A stretch of DNA of 64,000 bases from Octopus sinensis. Lineage: Eukaryota. The notes beneath the pieces were generated by a model. The model was not told the origin of the DNA, made no database searches, and saw nothing but the letters and a program-made list of their open reading frames with translations. Each line of letters starts with the position of its first letter. Positions within the stretch are counted from its first letter, which is position 1. The DNA lies in NCBI RefSeq assembly GCF_006345805.1, contig NC_043013.1:22878001-22942000 (forward strand). The letters are read 5' to 3'. Shown one piece after another: positions 3,962-63,685 of this stretch. A program made the position numbers and the translations under genes.

Positions 3962-4915
<954 letters not shown>

Positions 4916-15748: not shown

Positions 15749-15750
<2 letters not shown>

Positions 15751-16310
15751 GGCAGCGAGCTGGCAGAATCGTTAGCACGCCGGGCGAAATGCGTAGCCGT
15801 ATTTCGTCTGTCGTTACGTTGTGAGTTTAAATTCCGCCGAGGTCGACTTTGCAGGGTCGATAAATTAAGTACCAGTTACGCACTGGGGTCGATCTAATCG
15901 ACTTAATACTTATGTCTGTCCTTGTTTATCCCCTCTATGTTTAGCCCCTTGTGGGTAATAAAGAAATAGGTATTTCGTCTGCCGTTACGTTCTGAGTTCA
16001 AATTCCGCCGAGGTCGACTTTGCCTTTCATCCTTTCGGGGTCAATAAATTAAGTACCAGTTACCCACTGGGGTCGATATAATCGGCCTAAACCGTTTGTC
16101 TGTCCTTGTTTATCCCCTCTGTGTTTAGCCCCTTGTTGGTAGTAAAGAAACAGGTATTTCGCCCGTTGCTACGTTCTGAATTCAAATGCCGCAGGTGTCA
16201 ACTTCGACTTTCATCCTTTTCGAGAGTTGATAAATAAAGTACCATTTACACACTGGGTTCGACTGACTTAACCCTTTCCCCGAAATAACAGTGCCAAAAT
16301 TTGAAAACTT
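15749..16310 (+). mobile_element. Family-1 SINE multimer (one full head plus two head-less repeats)
   Basis: Unit restarts at ggtatttcg after each aaagaaa(t/c)ag tail (15969, 16153). Confidence 0.88.
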
Positions 16311-19427: not shown

Positions 19428-19646
19428 CATTCAAATTTTACACATGCCTTACTTAGGGTCCAAGGAGTGTCACGGGTCAAAAAATATTGTTTAACTTCTT
19501 GCCTAATAAAAACGGTAAGATAACAAAAGAAACAAGGAGACCTCGATATTACGTAAATAGAGGAAATTTATCTGTAAATATATTATGTGACAATTATTCG
19601 GTAGCCAAGATAAAACTCTGAGTTCATAGCATTTTGCCGATGGCCG

Positions 19647-19707
19647 GATAACTGAAGAGATGGTAGCGTGGATTTCCACCTCGGCATCCGAAACTCGGAG
19701 TTTTATC
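19647..19707 (+). ncRNA. Type I hammerhead ribozyme
   Basis: gauaa CUGAAGA gaug...guggauuuccac...cauc c GAAA cucggag UU uuauc. Confidence 0.68.
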
Positions 19708-19791
19708 ATGGCTACCGAATAATTGTCACATATTACATTTGCAGATATACATACATACATACATACATACATACATACATACATACATACA

Positions 19792-19822
<31 letters not shown>

Positions 19823-19889
19823 TAATATATATTTATATACATATATATATATCTGTAAATGTATTATGTGACAATTATTCGGTAGTCAT

Positions 19890-19950
19890 GATAAAACTCC
19901 GAGTTTCGGATGCCGAGGTGGAAATCCACGCCACCATCTCTTCAGTTATC
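19890..19950 (-). ncRNA. Type I hammerhead ribozyme (inverted copy)
   Basis: Reverse complement of 19647-19707. Confidence 0.68.
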
Positions 19951-20123
19951 CGGCCATCGGAAAAACGCTATGAACTCAGAGTTTTATCTAGGCTACCGAA
20001 TAATTGTCACATAATATATTTACAGATAAATTCCTCTATTTACATAATATCGAAGTCTCTTTGTTTCTTTTGTTATCTTACCGTTTTTATCAATACATAT
20101 ATATATATTATATGATATATATA

Positions 20124-21122: not shown

Positions 21123-21774
21123 TACGGCAACAGTCCGGATACTTATCGATCAAACGCGTGTGCATGCGCGCGCGCGCGTGCGTGTGTGTGCGTAGATTTA
21201 TCTCTGTATCCATCCGCGTAATTGGATATGGGATAATTGCATATTTCCTCAATTGCCTGATTTACAAAGCCTCGTTATTCAACGTGAAATCTATGTAAAA
21301 ATTGATCATTTACTTGTATATGTAAAGTAAATCCCCTTCAATTAATTTTAAAAGTATTTTCCAAAATTATAGCTAAAATATTTACGAAATATAGCCTTAA
21401 ACTTCATATGGAGATATTGATCGGTGAATTTGCACTTTTTCACGAGAGAAAATGCCAGAAGTCTATAATTTCCAGTGAATTAACAAGCGAAATCAAGAGA
21501 ACCAAACATATTCACATTATTCTTACCACTTAAATAAATTCAAATCATCCTAGTTCAGACTTGCGTGCAATTTTATGATATTTTAATTGGGCAATAAATT
21601 TGTTGGACAAATAAATCTTCATTTGGGGATAAGCATGTAAAAACATAATTTACATTCAAGCAGTGAATGGAGGCAAAGGTGTTTTCTGTCTTATATTAAC
21701 GAGAAACTCAAACTGTTGTTAACCTTCATGACACAGAGAAATTCTTCTTGGCCAACACCCCTCTATCTCTAATT

Positions 21775-22360
21775 ATCTATGTCTTTATTGCCCACAGGGG
21801 GCTAAACATGGAGGGGACAAACAAGGACAGACAAGGGATTAAGTCGATTAGATCGACCCCAGTACATAACTGGTACATATTTAATCGGCCCCGAAAGGAT
21901 GAAAGACAAACTCGACCTCGGCGGAATTTGAACTCAGAACGTAACGGTAGACGAAATAACTATTTCTTTACTACCCACAAGGGTCAAAACACAGAGAGGA
22001 CAAACAAACGGATCAAGTCGATTATATCGACACCAGTTCGTAACTGGTACTTATTTAATCGACCCCGGAAGGATGAAAGGCAAAGTTGACCTCAGCAGAA
22101 TTTGAACTCAGAACGTAACGGTAGACGAAATACCTATTTCTTTACTACTCACAAGGGGCAAAACACAGAGGACAAACAAGGACAAACGGATCAAATTGAT
22201 TATATCGACCCCAGTGCGTAACTGGTACTTATTTAATCGACCCCGAAAGGATGAAAAGCAAAGTCGACCTCGGCGGAATTTGAACTCAGAACGTAGCGGC
22301 AGACGAAATACCGCTAAGCATTTCGCCCGGCGTGCTAACGTTTCTGCCAGCTCGCCGCCT
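21775..22360 (-). mobile_element. Family-1 SINE trimer
   Basis: Three successive tail plus central units with a single tRNA-like head at ~22310-22360. Confidence 0.88.
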
Positions 22361-24040: not shown

Positions 24041-25414
24041 TTTTTTTTTTCTTCTTTCAAATTTGCTTCCATTTCTTGCCGAGTGTCTTCCCGACTCCTA
24101 GGGCAAAGAAACTCATAGTATACATTGGTAGGCCATTAAACCAAACTCAATAGTTCGTTCATTTTTTTATTTTTTTTTTTAAGTTAAATTAAAATACATG
24201 AGCAGCAACAGTTCTCACATCGACAATGCTCTTCTCAATACGTGTGATGTACCAGTTAAGACAATCTTTTGCACTTCTTGCAGGGATGGTAAGCCAGGGA
24301 TCATTCTCATATAATTTTCGGTTCCCTTCTTGATCATTCCTAGTGCTCCTACGATCACTGGTATTGTAACCGCCTTGAGATGCCACATTTTCTCAATTTC
24401 AATGAGTAGGTCTTTATATTTTCTGAGCTTGTCAAACTCTTTCGCTGAGATATTATGATCACAGGGAATGCTCATGTCGATCAATAAGAAAACTTTATTG
24501 TTTTGGTCTTTCACAACAATATCTGGTTTATTGGCCTTGATGGTTCGGTCTGTATGTACTGGAAAGTCCCACAGAATGGTTACATTTTCTCCTTCAGTTA
24601 CAGCCTCAGGGTGGTGATTATAGCACTTGTCGGCAGTTTTGATATTGTAATGCCGACTTATTAGCCAGTGGAGATATTGGCCAACTCTGTCATGTCTTAA
24701 TTTATACTCCACTGGTGCTAAGACTTTACATCCAGAGATTAGGTGGTCCACTGTTTCAATCATGTCGTTGCAGAATCGGCGGCATTTTGGGTCTGCTCCA
24801 TTTTTCATCACATTGGCCTGGTAGTTCCGGGTTAATAGGCTTTGATCTTGAGCAGCCAGGATGAAACCTTCGCTCTCTGCTTTTAGCCCTGAGCTCCGTA
24901 GCCACTGATGGTTTTGCTTCTGGTCAACATCAGCTTGTTTGCTGCGGGCCACATTTGCCGTGCAGAGGTTTCTCCTCCCAACTATCAGCCAATTGCTCGT
25001 GCGCTTTTTTCATTGCCATCATTTTCACCTTCTTTGCAACAATAGTTGCCGTACTTCCCTCGGGTTGTTCAGTTTGGGTATCCTGCCGAGATCAATAGCA
25101 AATTTTTTGCTTTCCTTTATGATAGAATGAAGCTTCTTCGTCTCTCGTGATTTTCCACGAGCTTTAGCATCCAGTCATTCGATATTCGAGATATTTGGCC
25201 AGTCCAATTGTGGTTGTTTTGTAAGCTAGTTCAAATTGGATCAGCCTCGACCTCCTTGGGCTCTGGGAAGGTAAAGGCGATCTACGTCTGCCTTTGGGTG
25301 GTGCATCCTATTACAACTCAGCAGCTTGCGTATTTTCCTATCTATATTCTTTACTTCACTCATATTCCAGTTCAACACATTGTAGCTATAAGTAACAACT
25401 GGAACTGCTAAGGA

Positions 25415-31433: not shown

Positions 31434-33469
31434 ACGCACAAAGGCTGAACTCTGCCATACTTACCTCCCATTAAAGCACCAAATAAAGATGTACTCTCCA
31501 TTTGGGGCTCCTGCAACCTAAATTGTTACGGAGCATATTTATAAACAATTTATAAGAGGAGCCAGTAGGATTACAGATCTGCACAGCTAATAGCCGACAT
31601 GAAGCTAATAACAACATTTTACTTGATAATGAATAAATTATAAACATTAATTACTAAATTTTTGTTTGATTAAACATGAGGCCATTGTATTAAGAGAATT
31701 AAGAGGTTGTGTCATACAAGTATTCGCCCAAGGACATTAGGAAAGTGAAATGAAAGATCTGTAACTCACGTCGTCAGAACTGACTTGCAAATCACAGTCG
31801 TTCTCAGATTCACACAGAAGAATTGCAAAAAGATATCTCGACAGTTTCATTGCCGTGAACAATGAAAAGTCTAACGTTTCGTGAACTTGTTCTTGGGTCT
31901 CCTTTATGAAGATTCCTTGTTACCGACGCTTACCAAGACCAATATCTGCAAGCAGAGATTCCACCCACATTATTCCACTCCATGCTGTTTTCTGTGCGTT
32001 TATTCTTACTCATGCGATCAGAACTGCCATGAGTTTTAAATTTGCATTTTAAGCTGATTTGTGAATGATTTCGGTGTCCTTTCTTTACTCTTGATAACAA
32101 TAATTTCTTAATTTTATATTTTAGTATTTTTTATATTTTTATATTTTAGTATTTAGTATTTTTTTAAATGTCTTTATTCTAGGACCAATAAATACAATTG
32201 AAAATGTTCCGAATGAGAATTAACAGATGTTAGCCAGGGAATATGGTACAGGTTATTCCAAACATCTTCGGTAACATTAGCGTTAATGTTGTTGTTGTAT
32301 AGCTCCAAATCGGCACTGAATGATCGAATTCTGATCGAAGGTGCTTCTGTTGTAATTATGCTATTTTCTGAGACATCATTCAATGTCTTACCTCGTTTTT
32401 AAGACAGCGGCGTTTGATGGGAGATGTTCATGATCGTCATCATCATCATCACCTTACTGTCCCAAGCGCATTTCTCCACGGGAATCGGTGCTGACCAAAA
32501 AGGGACACATTTACGTACGGTGGATAGTGGAGTGGCCTCCATATATGGCAGATTGCAGCAAATAGCTCTTAAGCAAATAAGCAATCGTGGACCAACGACA
32601 ACGGATTTACTGAAGGGAGGGGACTCACCAGGTAACATTGCTAATTCGTGAAAACTCTCAACCCCAACGCTGAGCTTGTGATGAAGCCTTGAGGGGTTGC
32701 ATCTTTAAAGAAGCCTAGTCTTTGTACGGGATGGGCAGAAGAAGCACCCATATCTGTAGTTGGCAGAAAAGCCGAACTTTCTGGCCAGCGATAGCCACAG
32801 AACAACAGCAAGTGCAATTATGTAATCTTGATTTTGACCCCTGTGCTGCAGTATTTACGGGTGGACTGGCAGCAAAGCGACATTCAACAGAGTGCTGGGT
32901 ACAGTTGATACTACTCCTACCATCGCAAAATTAATCTTGGCCATTGAAATAAGCCGGGATCTGTCAAGTTATTGGGTTTAGGAAACCACAGATGGCAGCC
33001 GCCAACTTTAATTTCTCTGTGGTCTTAACTATGTGAAGTCCAGATGCCACACAAATTTCCTTGTGAATGAACCCTGCATATACCCACCCTTTCGTTTATC
33101 TCCAAATCTAAACACATGTATCATACAATTATTATGATAGCTGCTGCCTGAGATGTGAGACTGTACTAAGTTGTCTGTCAATATTAGCACAGTTTCCAAT
33201 ACAAATATTTATCAACTGTGCCGTGTCGATTTATTAATATCTTTATGCAACTTGAGAGAATGTACTTTAATCTTTCTCTGTTTGCATTGTCTACAGTCAT
33301 TGTGTGACAATTATTTGCAGTCGGTTCTTTGGATGGTAGACAATGGTATTGCGTTAAACTTTAGCTGCATCTTCAGGCAGGATGTGGTTTCTCTTGATTT
33401 CCATTTACCTTTTCGACCTACTCTAGTCTTAACTATGTGAAGCTTTTCCTTGATGTAGGTTTTACTATA

Positions 33470-33850
33470 AGCATTATTAAATCTCAGAATGAGATTCGAG
33501 CGATTACTGTTTCAATCTCATTCTGAGATTTAATAATGCTTACTGTCAGTTTTTCGAAATCAGTGGCAGACGTCACTAGAAAACTCTTATATATTTGCAA
33601 GGCGGCCTTCTCTTTCATCGCGACCTGGTGGTTACCGCCCGTTGACAAGGGACAAAAATCCCGAAACTAGTCCGAGCGTATTACTCAGGCTTGCGAGGAA
33701 GGGATGGCTTCCCTTTGCAAATACTTCAAGGGCACTGAAATGGTGTCTAAAGCCAGCTAGAGACGACGATCTCCTAGGGCTATAAAGCTACAGTAACACC
33801 CCCTCCCCTATGTGGTAAGCCATGTTAAGATGGCTTCTATACTTTACAGA
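33470..33850 (+). mobile_element. ~380 bp structured HHR-bearing insertion (retrozyme-like monomer)
   Basis: Flanked by direct repeat ttttactata (33460-33469, 33851-33860); 29-bp perfect hairpin arms at ~33468-33542; long rod 33592-33723 enclosing the HHR. Confidence 0.7.
33633..33680 (+). ncRNA. Type I hammerhead ribozyme, U3-A8 core variant
   Basis: uac-cgcccg UUGACAA ggga-caaaaa-uccc GAAA cuag UC cgagcg-ua; palindromic stem III, GUC site. Confidence 0.68.
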
Positions 33851-34867
33851 TTTTACTATAGTTTCATCGAAACGATTTCACTTTGCTCTTCACCGAAATA
33901 CAACTTTCCTTTCCTCTCCTTTTCCTCTCCTTCTCCTCTCCAATACTAAACACTCGGTTCTATGTCAGGTTAACTTTTAACCGGAGAACACTTTAAGTTG
34001 ATTCGTTTTTGTTGATCATCCTTCATCCAGTAGGTTTATAAACTCAGTACAATCTCACATCTCAGGCAGCGACTATTACAATAATTGAATAATACATGTG
34101 TCTAGATTTGGATATAAACGAAAGGGTAGGTATACGCAGAGTGAAATCACAAGGACCCATGTTCGATTTATCGTCAATCGCCTGTCATCCATCAGTATGT
34201 GGTGAATATGACCAATCGTAACTATCCAATCTATTATTCGGACACTCTCTCTTACATGCACGCGCACTCACACACTCACACACAAACACATTCTCACTCA
34301 CATCCTCATAAATATGAACATAGAATCTGTAAACTAGGAGGCTGTTAATCCTGGATTAAGCAGAGCATGTCATTGATGATGTCGTGAATGGCAACGAAAG
34401 GACTCTGACGAACCTAGTTGGCTGATTGACGGATCGATCAATCGAACTATCGTTATGTCGATAATGAACGATCAATCAAACTATTAGTTAAACGGTTAAC
34501 TAATTGATTAATAAGAATAAAAGAAGTGAATAGTACCAGTGCATGTGTCTATTTCTGGCATAATGACCCTCCCACGATATCACTAAATCTATTTCAACAA
34601 ACACGTTTATAATAAGAACCCTGAAAGGCAAATACAAAAACTCAAAATAAACATACATTCCACTCTTCCTTTCTCTTTCTTCCCACATGCATACATAAAT
34701 ACCGACATACATACATAGATACATACATACATACATAGATACATACATACATACATACATGCATGTATATATACCTATATACACACATGCTCATATATAC
34801 TTACATATATACGTTCATACATATATACATGTATTTGCGTGTGTATTGCGTGTTTGTTTGTATAGAA

Positions 34868-35537: not shown

Positions 35538-36791
35538 TTGGGTCATCTATAAATAATGTGGATGTTTATACTTCTTTTATTTTCCAAAATTATGATAAAC
35601 GAAGTTTTTTTTAATCTAAAATATACTCTCCTTCATTTCCTACAATGTTCTTCAATCTATCTGGTAGACTTGCAAGGCCCCTCTTCCAAAATTCATTTAT
35701 CCGTCACTAAAAATACTCTTCCAGTATTGTTCTGACCTCGTCTACAGAATTCATATTTTTCTCGTCCAAATGATTTTGAAGATTGCGGAATAAATGATAA
35801 TCAGTTGGGACAATGTCCGGCGAATATGGTGGATGGGGCAGCGTTTCCCATTCAAACTGTTCCAGCCTTTGGAATGTCATCCTCGCTGTATGTGGCCAAG
35901 CATTATCCTGATGGAAGAACACCTTTCGTCTTGAAACCAGAAATGGTCGTTTTTCTTCTAGTGCTGACTTAAGCCACTCAAGCTGCTCGCAGCAGATCTC
36001 CTTTGCTATCATTCGGTTTGGGTTTAAAAGTTCAATGCGGACTAAACCTTTTATATTCCACCAAACAGATAACAACACCTCACATGGGTGAAGACCTTTA
36101 GCCTTGGGTGCCGGTTTTTCCCCTCTCGGCGCTTGACATTTTTTATAGAGAACCTATTTCTCGTCATCAGTCACTATTCGGTGAAAAAAAAAAGGTCCAT
36201 TAGTGAGACGAGACAACAGAGAAGAGCATACATTCACTCTCTGCGCGCGATTAGAGTCGGAAAGTTTGTGAGGCACTCTTTGACTCGGTCTGCTGACTTT
36301 TCCGATGGCAGGCAGGTGTCGATGAATGGTTGAATGGCCAAATCCAAGCCTCTCTGCTAGTTCCTCAACAGTTACAATGGGATTTTGTTCCAGCGGGCTT
36401 TGCAGGACGTCTTCGTCGAACTCTACAGACCTTCCAGGACGAGGCTCGTCTTCTAGGCTCGGAATTCCTGGAACCACTATTGACACTGGCTTACACTTCT
36501 TGTCCGATCCCCAAACACTGCATTAATATTCCTCGCACTTTCCGTTGCGTTGTTGCCTTTATTGAACTCATAAAGTAAAATATGCAGAATGTGCTCCTTT
36601 GTCACTTCCATTATAGCTTCGAAAGAATAACAGTTAAAATCTGCACTCTTCAAACCTTTCACTAAGAATAAGTACAAGGTGAAATTACTACCTGCTTTTG
36701 TAGCAAGTCGATACGGGTAGTTTATCCCGTCTCCCTCTAACATTTAGTTCATGCAATTGAAAAGAACCGCATTATTCATGGGATGACCAAA
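35538..36791 (-). mobile_element. Full-length (~1.25 kb) but frameshifted mariner with TIRs and TA target duplication
   Basis: TIRs ttgggtcatctataaataatgtgg / ccgcattattcatgggatgaccaaa flanked by TA; ORF pieces 36477-36743, 36154-36486 and 35707-36078 give HTH, IVTDDEK, HQDNA and PYSPDIVPTDYHLF (D,D34D). Confidence 0.95.
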
Positions 36792-38330: not shown

Positions 38331-38449
38331 ATTTACTCACGGAGTCAGCCTGATTCCAAAATGGCACGACATGTTGGGCTACGGCCTCTAGGAGTAAAGT
38401 TGAAAAAGTGTGACACACTGACTTTCACATTTATTATATTATATTATTA

Positions 38450-38672
38450 TAAGTCCTCGAGCTGGCAGAACCGTTAGCACGCCGGGCGAAATGCTTGGCA
38501 GTATTCCGTCTTGTCTTTACGTTGTGAGTTCAAATTCCGCCGAGATCGATTTTATCTTTCATCCTTTCGGGCTCGATAAAATTAGCACCAGTTATGTACT
38601 GGTGTTGATGTAATCAACTTAATTCCTTCCCCAAAAATTTGAGGCCTTGTGCTTCCAGTAGAAAGGAATTAT
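38450..38672 (+). mobile_element. Family-1 SINE
   Basis: cgagctggcagaaccgttagcacgccgggcgaaatgc...gagttcaaattccgccgag...tttcatcctttcgggctcgataaa. Confidence 0.88.
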
Positions 38673-53377: not shown

Positions 53378-53785
53378 TCTTTATATATAAAAGTGAGGTT
53401 GTGTGCTGTCTGTCTCCTACGATTTAGATTCCTAACTACTCCCACATTTTGCGGTACAGTTTAACCAAAACCGGGTATCTTATAGTCGTGATTCATATCG
53501 AGCCCTTCTGGGTATTAGCGCGCGTCTACAATGAGTCTACAATGAGTCTACGATTTAAAAAAGAATTACCATCAATTTTTCCCATTTTTAATGCATTTTT
53601 GGCATATATAAGGGAAGTAACTCTCTAAAAATTTATTATTAAATCTCAGAACGTAAAAAGCTACAGTAACACCCCCCCCCTTTGTGGTTAGCCATATTGA
53701 GATGGCTATTATACTTTACATCTCTAAAAATTCTTATATAGTTATTTCCCTTACAAACCCGAGCAACGCCGGGCGATACTGCTAG
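53378..53785 (+). mobile_element. Non-autonomous Helitron
   Basis: A|TC start, subterminal hairpin cccgagcaacgccggg, CTAG|T end, no TSD; second copy at 56091. Confidence 0.9.
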
Positions 53786-56090: not shown

Positions 56091-56603
56091 TCTATATATA
56101 TAAAACTGTAGTTGTGTGAGTGTCTGTCCCCTTCGATTTAGATTCCTAACTACTCCCACATTTTGCGGTGCAGTTTAACCAAATTCGGATATCTTATAGT
56201 CGTGATTCATATCGAGCCCGTCTGTGTACTAGCGCGCGTCTACGATGAGTCTACGATTTTAAAAATAATTTAACATCATTTTTTATTCCATTTTAATGCA
56301 TAATTTTTCGTGTGTCGATGGCGGCGGAGTTGGCGTCCATGGTTACACCTGCACCTGTTTGCTTCTCCCCCTTCTTCCCTCCCTCGTGAAGCTGTGGGGA
56401 AGTGAGTGTAAGGAAATCAACGTCGTAAAGCGTTGTCAAGGAGACCAGCGTTCTTTTAGAACAACGACTTCATGGCTTGAAGACACCAAAACAGAAATGG
56501 CTAAGAAAGCCCGAATTGGCATCTATAAGGGAAGTAACTCTCTAAAAATGCTTATATAGTTATTTCCCTTACAAACCCGAGCAACGCCGGGCGATACTGC
56601 TTG
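56091..56603 (+). mobile_element. Non-autonomous Helitron, same family as 53378 but different interior
   Basis: Shared 5' ~200 bp and 3' hairpin; ends CTTG|T; extra ~220 bp segment 56299-56518. Confidence 0.88.
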
Positions 56604-60924: not shown

Positions 60925-62500
60925 TTATTTATTTATTAGTGAACACATCGTATACCATGTATGTATACATTCTTTCCTTTATGTTTGTGTACGTCACTGT
61001 TTTGTGTGTGTGTGCGTCGTTATTTGTAAGTTCCCCCTCTGGCGCTACTACTACACTCCAAACCTTTCCTCCCATGGACTAATTTACTCAACAATATCAA
61101 ATCTTATTAAAAGATAATGCCATTGTTTCCGGACTAAAAAAAAAAAACACTTTTTCAACTCCGAGCGGCCAACTAAACCCTTTAACCTCGTTTTTATCTT
61201 TATGCTCCAATGAACTCCATTTTCACAAACAATCTTTCATGGCTGCCCGACTCCCGAACCAATGCATCCACTCAGACACCAACCTACTGAATGACAAATT
61301 TAATTTATCAACCTTCATTTTGTTTCTAATCATGGAAACAGATTCTTATCTTTACACATTCCATCGATCTGGACCCAAACTCACACACTTCCCTGCAGCA
61401 TGAATACACACACACACTCAAACACACAAACACATTCACAGAAGCACACACACATATATACACACATACACACATCCCTCAGACAGACCTACACAATATC
61501 ACTATCTTCAATAAAGAAAAACGGAAATAAAATATAAGCAATCCAACATAACACGTTCGCACACAATATTGAATCTTCAAACTTTCGATGGCGAGAAATG
61601 CAACTTTTATTTCAAAATAATAATTAATAGCGACAGAAGGAGTATTATTAATACGAAAAGGTGATATTGGCCTTGCACTTAAAATGGATGTTGTGTTAGA
61701 ACACAGAATACTGCATCGATTTCCATGAGAGGACTTCGCATATGGTGCATAAAAATAATCCATTAGCGAAGACAGCCGCCTGGAATAAAAGTCGTAGCTG
61801 CAGGGAAATATCGAACACTCAAATAACCACAACGAAATTGTTACAATTCAAATATGTAGAGTTTCCCTCTTTCTTTGAGTTAACTGAAGCAGAAAAATAT
61901 GTTTGCAGCCATGCATTAATGTATATATGTATGCATGAATGCATGGATTTATACACGCATTAATAAATACGGGCATGCATATACACTAGTATATATGTAT
62001 AAAGCAATATTTATATATTAGGGATGTTTCGGGTTAAGCTTTATGAGTGCAGTTCTTAAAACAAAATATGTTCCTGTAGACAAAAAACATATATTCGAGT
62101 GTATATGCGTCGTATATATGCTTCGCCTGATTTGTTCAGCTATTTCGGTTCATTCGCTTCAGAGAAGAAAACTTCGTCTCGCTCCTGCCTACGAATTGTG
62201 TGCGTCAGACAAACTACTGCTGTGTACGTATGTTTAAATTCCTTGTATTCATCGATGTCTGGAGCGATTTTTATGTAATTATTTAAAATATATACCAGTC
62301 CAGACTTGTGTACTTCCCTGTAATATTTCAATTTACAAATGTTTCCATATATACAAAGCTCGAGACTGTCTACATTGCTGGAATACAAAGCAGTCACGTG
62401 ACAAATTCATTTTTATAGATCGAAAAGACATTGTGTTGCAGTTTTACGTGCTCTAACTTATGATATATACTTGTGTATATACACACACACACACACACAT

Positions 62501-63685
62501 ACATCACCTCGATGATGGTGATGCTGTTGACATCGTTTTATTGGACTTTGCCAAAGCTTTTGACTCGGTAAACCACCGCCTATTACTTGTCAAGCTTCAA
62601 GCATATAGTTTCCATCCAGATATTGTACGATGGGTTGGTGCCTTCCTCTCAGATCGCTCCTTCCAAGTCCAAGTTAATGGTTCGCTGTCCGACGTCTCCA
62701 GTGCGTACAGTGGCGTGCCTCAAGGTTCAGTGCTTGGGCCCTTATTGTTCTTTGTCTTCATAAATGACTTGCCCTACGACCTCACGCAACACACCCTTCT
62801 ATTTGCCGATGATGTCAAACTGGTCGCTCCTCGCGGTGATATAGAGGATCTTTGTCGGTGCCTCCACCAAGTTTGGAGATGGTCTAACGAATGGGACCTG
62901 TGTCTGAACGTGTCAAAGTGCTGTCATCTGCCTGTTGTCTCTTCTCCTGCAACTCAACTTGATTTCGAGCCGGGTCGTCTGCTGCTGGAGAGGACCGACC
63001 AGGTAAAGGACCTGGGTATCTTGGTGGATTCTTCCTTTTCGCCTTCGGCCCAGTGCGTCTATGCTGCCAACAAAGCACGCGGAGTTCTGTTTTTGATTCG
63101 ACGGTCATTCGCGATGCTCACAGCAGCCATATTCCTACCGCTCTATGTCACGCTGGTGAGACCCATATTGGAGTACGGGATTCAAACCTCTTCTCCTTAT
63201 CTCCTCAAAGACATACAGCATCTCCAGAAGCTGGCTACCCGCATGGTTCTTGGTCTCAAGCATTTGTCTTATGAAGAAAGGCTGAAGACGCTCGACCTTT
63301 ATTCTCTAGAAAAACGACGACGCCGTGGTGATCTCATTCTTGCTCACAACATCATAAGCGGAAAGTGTAATCTCTCGAAAGAGCTGTTCTTCACTCCTGC
63401 TCCAGAGCGTCGGCTGCGGGGTCACTCCGAAAAGCTCTATCTGGGACGATTTCATCTCAATCGAAGGAGAGGAGCTTTCTCCGTCCGGGTTGCGGATCTG
63501 TGGAATAAGCTGCCGGACGAGATAGTGAAGATGCCGACGACCGCTCGGTTCAAAGTCTCCCTTGACCACAAATGGCCTGAACTCTTTGCATGATCACCAC
63601 CCTGTACATAACTCCATGTCCCCCTACATGGCCTTGCTTTTTGCTTTTTGAGCCAAAAAATTAACTAACTAACTAACTAACTAAC
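62501..63685 (+). mobile_element. CR1-clade LINE, 5'-truncated, open RT frame, (CTAA)n tail
   Basis: ORF to 63593 with LDFAKAFDSV, SGVPQGSVLGPLLF, FADD, KDLG, LVRPILEY, LSYEERL..L.L.SLE.RR.RGDLI; the ORF-track start in (CA)n is spurious. Confidence 0.95.

Follow-up and report, generated by a model that had tools for sequence, protein, structure and literature searches.

What is the element in the octopus genome whose hammerhead ribozyme reads UUGACAA in its core, and does the double change in this core reflect selection? The question is raised by a stretch of 64,000 nucleotides (nt) of Octopus sinensis (NCBI RefSeq assembly GCF_006345805.1, contig NC_043013.1, positions 22,878,001 to 22,942,000, forward strand), here called the window, whose own numbering is used throughout. 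An original prediction made from the letters of this stretch had noted a single insertion of about 380 bp carrying such a hammerhead in a long rod. Our analysis suggests that positions 33496-33848 are a monomer inserted on its own, a solo copy of a metazoan retrozyme with high copy number and of the type without long terminal repeats (non-LTR retrozyme), moved by a Penelope-type machinery, in which A at position 8 is a CpG-type change or the mark of a sub-lineage. To this reading as a whole we assign a probability of roughly 0.7.

The hammerhead motif

Judged by its sequence, the hammerhead around 33642-33672 is real and belongs to type I. The core TTGACAA (UUGACAA in RNA; 33642-33648, plus strand) holds U3, U4, G5, A6, C7, A8 and A9. 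Compared to the consensus C3 U4 G5 A6 N7 G8 A9 / G12 A13 A14 it deviates at U3 and A8, the rest of the core agrees, and in this copy positions 3 and 8 form a Watson-Crick U3-A8 pair. In the predicted fold three stems surround the core, the A15.1-U16.1 pair is present and the motif ends in stem I. In the predicted ensemble stems I and II are already formed, with five of the six stem I pairs at pairing probabilities of 0.78-1.0 and stem II at 0.85-0.99, and C17 satisfies H17. Stem I carries a C·A mismatch (C33639 versus A33675) three pairs off the core. The rod prolonging stem I contains 43 pairs in the minimum free energy (MFE) fold and reaches a z-score of -5.6 against 200 shuffles. The fold of the minus strand is weaker (-48.5, z -3.2), and this strand holds no hammerhead core. 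Cofolding of two core fragments did not yield the dimer form, which energy folding does not model. The core, the GGGA/UCCC stem II, the palindromic stem III and the GUC site of the original prediction were all recovered, as was its imperfect stem I extension of about 45 pairs, in which the C·A mismatch had been overlooked.

A motif descriptor that was devised after the motif had been seen, and that allows C3-G8, U3-A8 or U3·G8, gave a single match over the two strands of the window and matched in 1 of 200 simulations of the window based on dinucleotide frequencies. The Rfam model HH9 (RF02275) matched 33624-33694 over its full length with 31.6 bits and an E-value of 6.2e-6 (relaxed filters, 701 bases), which is below the gathering score of 52 bits and leaves the motif outside the family by this measure; an Rfam scan of the 64-kb window returned nothing at gathering level. 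At the level of the letters, the elements known for tertiary contacts, namely the stem I bulge GUUAC and loop II CAAAAA, agree with the HH9 consensus. Unlike HH9, the octopus motif has U3, A8, a shorter stem III and the C·A mismatch in stem I.

The repeat unit and its family

Data on the family were derived from contigs of four sequencing runs (X1, X3, X7 and X11) out of 24, of which 20 contain part of the window and none half or more of it. X1 and X11 are runs of the same organism (organism A), and X11 is only guessed to be RNA. Contig depth is used here as a rough weight, not as a copy number, and the shares at positions 3 and 8 are unphased.

Coverage by the family starts at 33496 and stops at 33848. 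In all four runs position 33848 is joined head to tail to 33496 with three bases in between, which gives a unit of 356 nt; this joint was found in 5, 4, 1 and 2 contigs of X1, X3, X7 and X11, respectively. In three runs the depth summed over the core exceeded that of the flank by a factor of about 800-2,100, a ratio not to be read as copy number. The unit is non-coding, its longest ATG-started frame comprising 44 codons, and highly self-paired (-112.9 kcal/mol without the 5' arm of the junction hairpin described below, z -4.8 versus 60 shuffles). A long terminal direct repeat was not found at the element; a primer binding site and a polypurine tract were not searched for.

Size, a GC content below 50%, the lack of an open reading frame (ORF), self-pairing and a long target-site duplication (TSD) fit the published definition of retrozymes, which gives units of 150-450 bp with less than 50% GC, no coding capacity and TSDs of more than 4 bp (PMC7229834; Cervera and de la Peña 2020). 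Therefore, the element was assigned to the metazoan non-LTR retrozymes, with which it shares the type I hammerhead, unit size, low GC content, self-pairing, head-to-tail joints and long TSD. The same source reports units of 350-390 bp in mussel and of 330/350 bp in axolotl, and the weak palindromic stem III of the octopus copy resembles that of the axolotl motif acting as a dimer. This bears out the predicted retrozyme family, as the type I hammerhead lies in a multi-copy head-to-tail unit with a flanking duplication. In contrast to the known metazoan families, the octopus family has U at position 3 together with G or A at position 8. Our literature search did not find a description of a cephalopod retrozyme, including in the available part of PMC8557442, and exact-pattern scans gave no match in metagenome contigs, viral contigs or prokaryote genomes.

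The locus holds one unit and thus falls outside the class of 'active' retrozymes, which have been defined as no fewer than two units in succession that carry a complete hammerhead (bioRxiv 10.64898/2026.07.22.740005); solo monomers are described in the same preprint. Run X3 matches both flanks of the insertion without difference and may come from the source organism. X1, which bears another organism label, contains the left junction, with 5 differences among 269 bases of the flank. Since the left junction thus also occurs in organism A with a diverged flank, the insertion is apparently not recent and has aged in place. X11 contains the head-to-tail joint and covers the element but not its flanks, a pattern that a shallow DNA run could also produce. 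Loose contig ends at 33672-33702 point to sister subfamilies that have the 3' half of the unit in common, but whose hammerheads differ in sequence and possess a longer stem III.

Variation at positions 3 and 8

The original prediction took the double change as a product of selection and expected other copies to keep U3 and A8 together. In contrast, G8 accounts for 67%, 76% and 72% of the contig depth in X1, X3 and X7, and for 23% in X11. In the first three runs A8 amounts to 24-33% and U7 to 11-17%, A8 outnumbering U7 1.7-2.5-fold. In X11 A8 reaches 77% of the depth, which comes from four contigs, one of them contributing 50.5 of 73.4 and also carrying U7. C3 is absent among the best 40 of 70 variant rows, these 40 all having a share of 36% or more in one run or another; as the rows seem to be ranked by share, C3 would be at or below about 36%. 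U3 is thus probably the family majority at position 3, and U3·G8 would make up at least 30-40% of the depth in three runs, both estimates resting on the best 40 of 70 rows and the latter on unphased positions. As far as seen, the U3-A8 pair is not kept together across the family.

Together with G8, C7 forms a CpG (C7pG8), and both of its decay products, U7 and A8, occur in the family. In X1, G>A and C>T changes make up 11 of the 19 variants outside the best 40 rows, in line with a general CpG-type change. With G8 predominating in three runs, U3·G8 apparently common and A8 located at a CpG, selection cannot be demonstrated from one U3-A8 copy, and the selection argument for the double change is not supported. 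The prediction had named a CUGACGA consensus with two independent decay events as the finding that would speak against it; A8 may indeed be decay, but U3 is probably a trait of the family rather than private decay of this copy. Independently of these two positions, the copy differs at 33682, 33776 and 33817 from 98-100% of the family depth. At position 17 (33672) U was found in 85% of the depth of X3 and 78% of that of X7, compared with 2% and 7% in the pair of runs from organism A, a difference that may be genuine or may stem from a small number of contigs with high depth.

That U3-A8 is a tolerated compensatory variant agrees with the literature, where it was described in 2011 as a natural covariation in prokaryotes and phages that had previously been reported to be active in vitro (PMC3088659). 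In 2014 about 1,300 U3-A8 matches were reported in Penelope-like elements of Schistosoma mansoni (PMC4209133), so the variant can hardly be called rarely detected. The octopus core pair is therefore shared with the Cercyon Penelope-like elements of schistosomes and with prokaryotes and phages. Unlike the schistosome hammerheads, which are minimal and reside in pseudo-LTRs, the octopus hammerhead is extended with HH9-type loops and belongs to a family that seems to be mostly U3·G8. The U3-A8 core by itself is already known; our contribution lies in a U3·G8 core that probably forms the majority, and in junctions of the Penelope-like kind.

Insertion junctions

The coordinates of both insertions and of the hammerhead parts are given in the table. 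The predicted 10-bp direct repeats flank the insertion exactly; when 3000 random pairs with equal spacing were compared, 11 had at least 10 bases in common. The predicted perfect 29-bp hairpin at the opening of the element was also confirmed in its pairing (29/29; 33468-33496 with 33514-33542), whereas its 5' arm lies outside the repeat unit. This arm is missing from the head-to-tail joint of the family, and arm lengths differ between insertions, which is why it is not counted as part of the unit; single-copy contigs over the left junction do not show it to be unique to the locus. From its sequence context the hairpin is a by-product of insertion.

Table. Coordinates of the retrozyme insertions and of the hammerhead in the window
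Feature	Position	Strand	Remark
Left target-site duplication	33457-33469 or 33460-33469		13 bp with one mismatch, or exact 10 bp
Right target-site duplication	33848-33860 or 33851-33860		13 bp with one mismatch, or exact 10 bp
Inverted copy of 33515-33542 at 5' junction	33468-33495	-	28 nt; creates the 29-bp hairpin
Region copied inverted at 5' end of both insertions	33514-33542	+	
Retrozyme monomer	33496-33848	+	353 of the 356-nt unit; 45% GC
Rod prolonging stem I	33592-33723	+	43 predicted pairs
Bulge GUUAC of stem I, with the proximal 5' strand of this stem	33631-33641	+	left of core; HH9-like
Core positions 3-9	33642-33648	+	
Stem II and loop	33649-33662	+	4 bp GGGA/TCCC; loop CAAAAA identical to HH9 consensus loop
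G12 A13 A14 (GAA)	33663-33665	+	
Stem III	33666-33671	+	palindromic; 2 bp and 2-nt loop
C17	33672	+	cut predicted between 33672 and 33673
Proximal stem I, 3' strand	33673-33678	+	
Second insertion	53634-53720	+	5'-truncated; 3' end identical to that of the main copy
Inverted piece of unit 33521-33537	53635-53651		17 nt; opens the second insertion
Last 68 nt of the unit	53654-53720	+	88% identical
Direct repeat bracketing second insertion	53622-53633 and 53721-53732		12 bp, exact
Empty site in paralogous Helitron-like copy	56539-56550		word once (11/12 bases), no insert

The prediction of a single insertion holds for full-length copies in the window; the family is high-copy, and a second, truncated insertion is present. 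It lies in a non-coding element (53378-53785) with a TC start, a terminal hairpin and a CTAG end, inserted between A and T. These ends, like those of a second copy at 56091-56603 without a retrozyme insert, are what we take to be Helitron hallmarks, and both copies are referred to as Helitron-like. The empty site in the second copy has flanks matching at 33/35 and 52/53 positions, and as it carries the word once, the 12-bp duplication of the second insertion is proven. Mere capture of retrozyme sequence by a Helitron was dropped owing to this duplication and the empty site. Junction variants in X1, X3 and X7 suggest that the filled Helitron-like form later multiplied. A global alignment between retrozyme and Helitron-like element is informative only over the 68-nt common piece. 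About 215 bp at 56302-56515 occur only in the second Helitron-like copy and have no other match in the window.

Both insertions (2/2) thus combine an inverted 5' piece with a duplication of 10-13 bp. On a tandem or circular unit, the inverted pieces of 28 nt (main) and 17 nt (second) start beyond the 3' end, by 50 and 45 nt, respectively, and the region 33514-33542 would end 45-50 nt beyond it, in a tail-like manner. In the available parts of PMC7229834 and bioRxiv 10.64898/2026.07.22.740005 a fixed 3' end together with an inverted 5' piece was not found described for retrozymes.

Mode of mobilization

Penelope-like elements are known for an inverted 5' copy, a tail of 30-40 bp and TSDs of 8-10 bp (PMC8557442, PMC3846280). 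For one such element studied in vitro, the protein was found to cleave AT-rich DNA on both strands, to extend both and to begin inside the RNA, the tail being the stretch between two reverse-transcription start sites (PMC11167929). The published case for such elements moving retrozymes builds, in the parts available, on co-occurrence, hammerheads in common and phylogeny. Since the junctions of both octopus insertions resemble Penelope-like insertions, we infer Penelope-type mobilization in trans, for which two events thus provide sequence-level support. Shared are the inverted piece at the 5' junction, the TSD on the scale of 8-10 bp in AT-rich DNA, the two putative internal start points on the RNA and the frequent 5' truncation. 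Unlike Penelope-like insertions, the octopus unit has no ORF, its inverted piece comprises just 17-28 nt and it is in tandem with itself.

The proposed pathway would begin with the transcription of tandem arrays, as in known retrozymes. Hammerheads would pair via the palindromic stem III and cut the multimers into monomers able to circularize; dimer-dependent cutting via such a stem III has been described (PMC4209133, PMC6765202). A Penelope-type reverse transcriptase (RT)/endonuclease acting in trans may then nick AT-rich DNA at sites 10-13 bp apart and use both target strands to prime within the RNA, once where the unit ends (33848) and once 45-50 nt further. The first cDNA would become the body of the insertion (353 or 68 nt), the second one the inverted piece of 17-28 nt. 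As the cut site is intact in the copy, the template was presumably a circle or an uncut multimer. The main copy is three bases short of a full unit, which would suit a circle copied once and also an uncut multimer. U3 would be a trait of the subfamily, with position 8 mostly G in a U·G wobble and sometimes A, and A8 here is most simply a CpG-type change or a sub-lineage mark that restored the Watson-Crick pair by chance. A lone copy is predicted to cut poorly at this locus because it has no partner hammerhead.

Several observations weigh against parts of this account. Only two insertions were compared, and the empty site belongs to the second and not to the main one; the empty-site joint of the main copy was not seen in the four runs, X1 having no cover over the right junction, which proves nothing. 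The offset of 45-50 nt at the two events exceeds the published tail, and the inverted pieces stop within the tail region instead of forming a near-whole copy of the repeat. Twin priming of L1-type elements (LINEs) also yields 5' inversions. An ORF of the Penelope type (RT and GIY-YIG) was found neither in the unit nor among the 8 of 48 window ORFs scanned (Pfam, motifs). The head-to-tail joint does not tell a circle from a multimer or from tandem DNA. The U3 majority is deduced only from the best-ranked rows, with positions 3 and 8 unphased and depth as a rough weight. Furthermore, the excess of A8 over U7 is unexpected under plain symmetric decay.

Alternative explanations

The excess of A8 over U7 in X1, X3 and X7 speaks for another explanation, namely that A8 was selected as compensatory and an active U3-A8 sub-lineage, derived from U3·G8 parents, was favoured in transcription or transposition. 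The high A8 share in X11, the activity of U3-A8 in vitro (PMC3088659) and the intact remaining core, stem II and HH9-type loops are consistent with this. It has to be set against the G8 majority in three runs and the composition of X11, in which one dominant contig carries U7; in addition, this copy departs from the family at the three positions named above and has aged in place. In the satellite hammerhead of a cricket, which is regarded as functional, changes of C3 and G8 are rare, with 4 and 2 of 198 sequences (PMC2837043). Taken together, selection of A8 seems unlikely. Somewhat better placed, and a possible though tentative alternative, is a relaxed ribozyme: U3·G8 would cut poorly or never, the unit would be copied from uncut multimers and cutting would be left to the sister subfamilies. 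This is compatible with our explanation on the origin of the insertion and departs from it on activity only. It draws on the apparently common U3·G8, the C·A mismatch in stem I, the share of U17 in X3 and X7, the sister units with other hammerheads and longer stem III, and on the finding that hammerhead mutants of a Penelope-like element inserted normally in vitro (PMC11167929). On the other hand, U4, G5, A6, A9 and G12-A14 are not among the best 40 of 70 variant rows, and our literature search found no cleavage measurement of a U3·G8 hammerhead.

The junction anatomy and the U3-A8 reported for hammerheads of Penelope-like elements (PMC4209133) would also fit a solo pseudo-LTR left by an autonomous Penelope-like element truncated at its 5' end. 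This is improbable, given that the 3' end of the unit runs in all four runs into its own 5' end and not into an ORF, and that in X1 the loose letters preceding 33496 (11 records) correspond to the end of the unit itself; moreover, no ORF exceeds 44 codons, and the hammerhead is extended with tertiary loops rather than minimal. That the motif arose by chance, within a fold-back DNA element or within a hairpin resembling a microRNA, is largely refuted and has almost no probability left. The motif does score below the Rfam gathering threshold and the 29-bp hairpin does draw microRNA models (E 6e-5 to 0.6), but these are generic long-hairpin matches far below their gathering scores, the hairpin arm lies outside the unit, and neither the single hit in the simulations nor the HH9 loop match agrees with chance. 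We therefore retain the Penelope-type-moved solo retrozyme as the best explanation.

Surroundings of the insertions

The main insertion is enclosed by a 115-bp inverted repeat (33058-33172 and 34041-34155; 86% complementary) that has single-copy depth in X1, X3 and X7. By its arrangement, the main copy may sit inside an old fold-back or MITE-like relic (33058-34155). Immediately to the left of the insertion a 22-bp direct repeat was found (33017-33038 and 33421-33442; 91% alike, 404 bp apart). The stretch 34158-34200 is the edge of another high-copy repeat that is deep in X1, X3 and X7 and almost missing from X11.

The window as a whole is rich in microsatellites, and its repeats are reminiscent of octopus genomes. 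It also contains a broken mariner-type transposase (35707-36522, minus strand), a C-terminal fragment of a non-LTR retrotransposon (24215-25009, minus strand) and an RVT_1 fragment (62457-63593, plus strand). The named protein matches of one window fragment come from marine invertebrates (hydrozoan, shrimp and sea cucumber), with 56-68% identity. A stretch of 586 bp (19506-20090) is self-complementary at 89%. A dispersed, partly tandem repeat with a unit of about 180 bp occurs at 21771-22360, 15749-16276, 4294-4513 and 38431-38627 and gave no hammerhead match with our descriptor.

Significance for animal retrozymes

Insertion junctions contribute an independent line of evidence on the mover of animal retrozymes. 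In the octopus family the constant 3' end, the inverted piece with its set offset and the duplications of 10-13 bp lend themselves to a genome-wide test. If the family is mostly U3·G8 and partly U3-A8, it would offer a natural series in which to follow the change of a catalytic pair through a wobble. Families of this kind escape searches that require CUGANGA. More speculatively, and rather doubtful at present, the U3·G8 family may stand midway on the path from C3-G8 to U3-A8 with A8 being favoured, and solo copies may be cDNAs of one lap around a circular RNA made by a Penelope-type enzyme. If this were true, thousands of genomic junctions would record both the mobilizer of animal retrozymes and the RNA form that it used.

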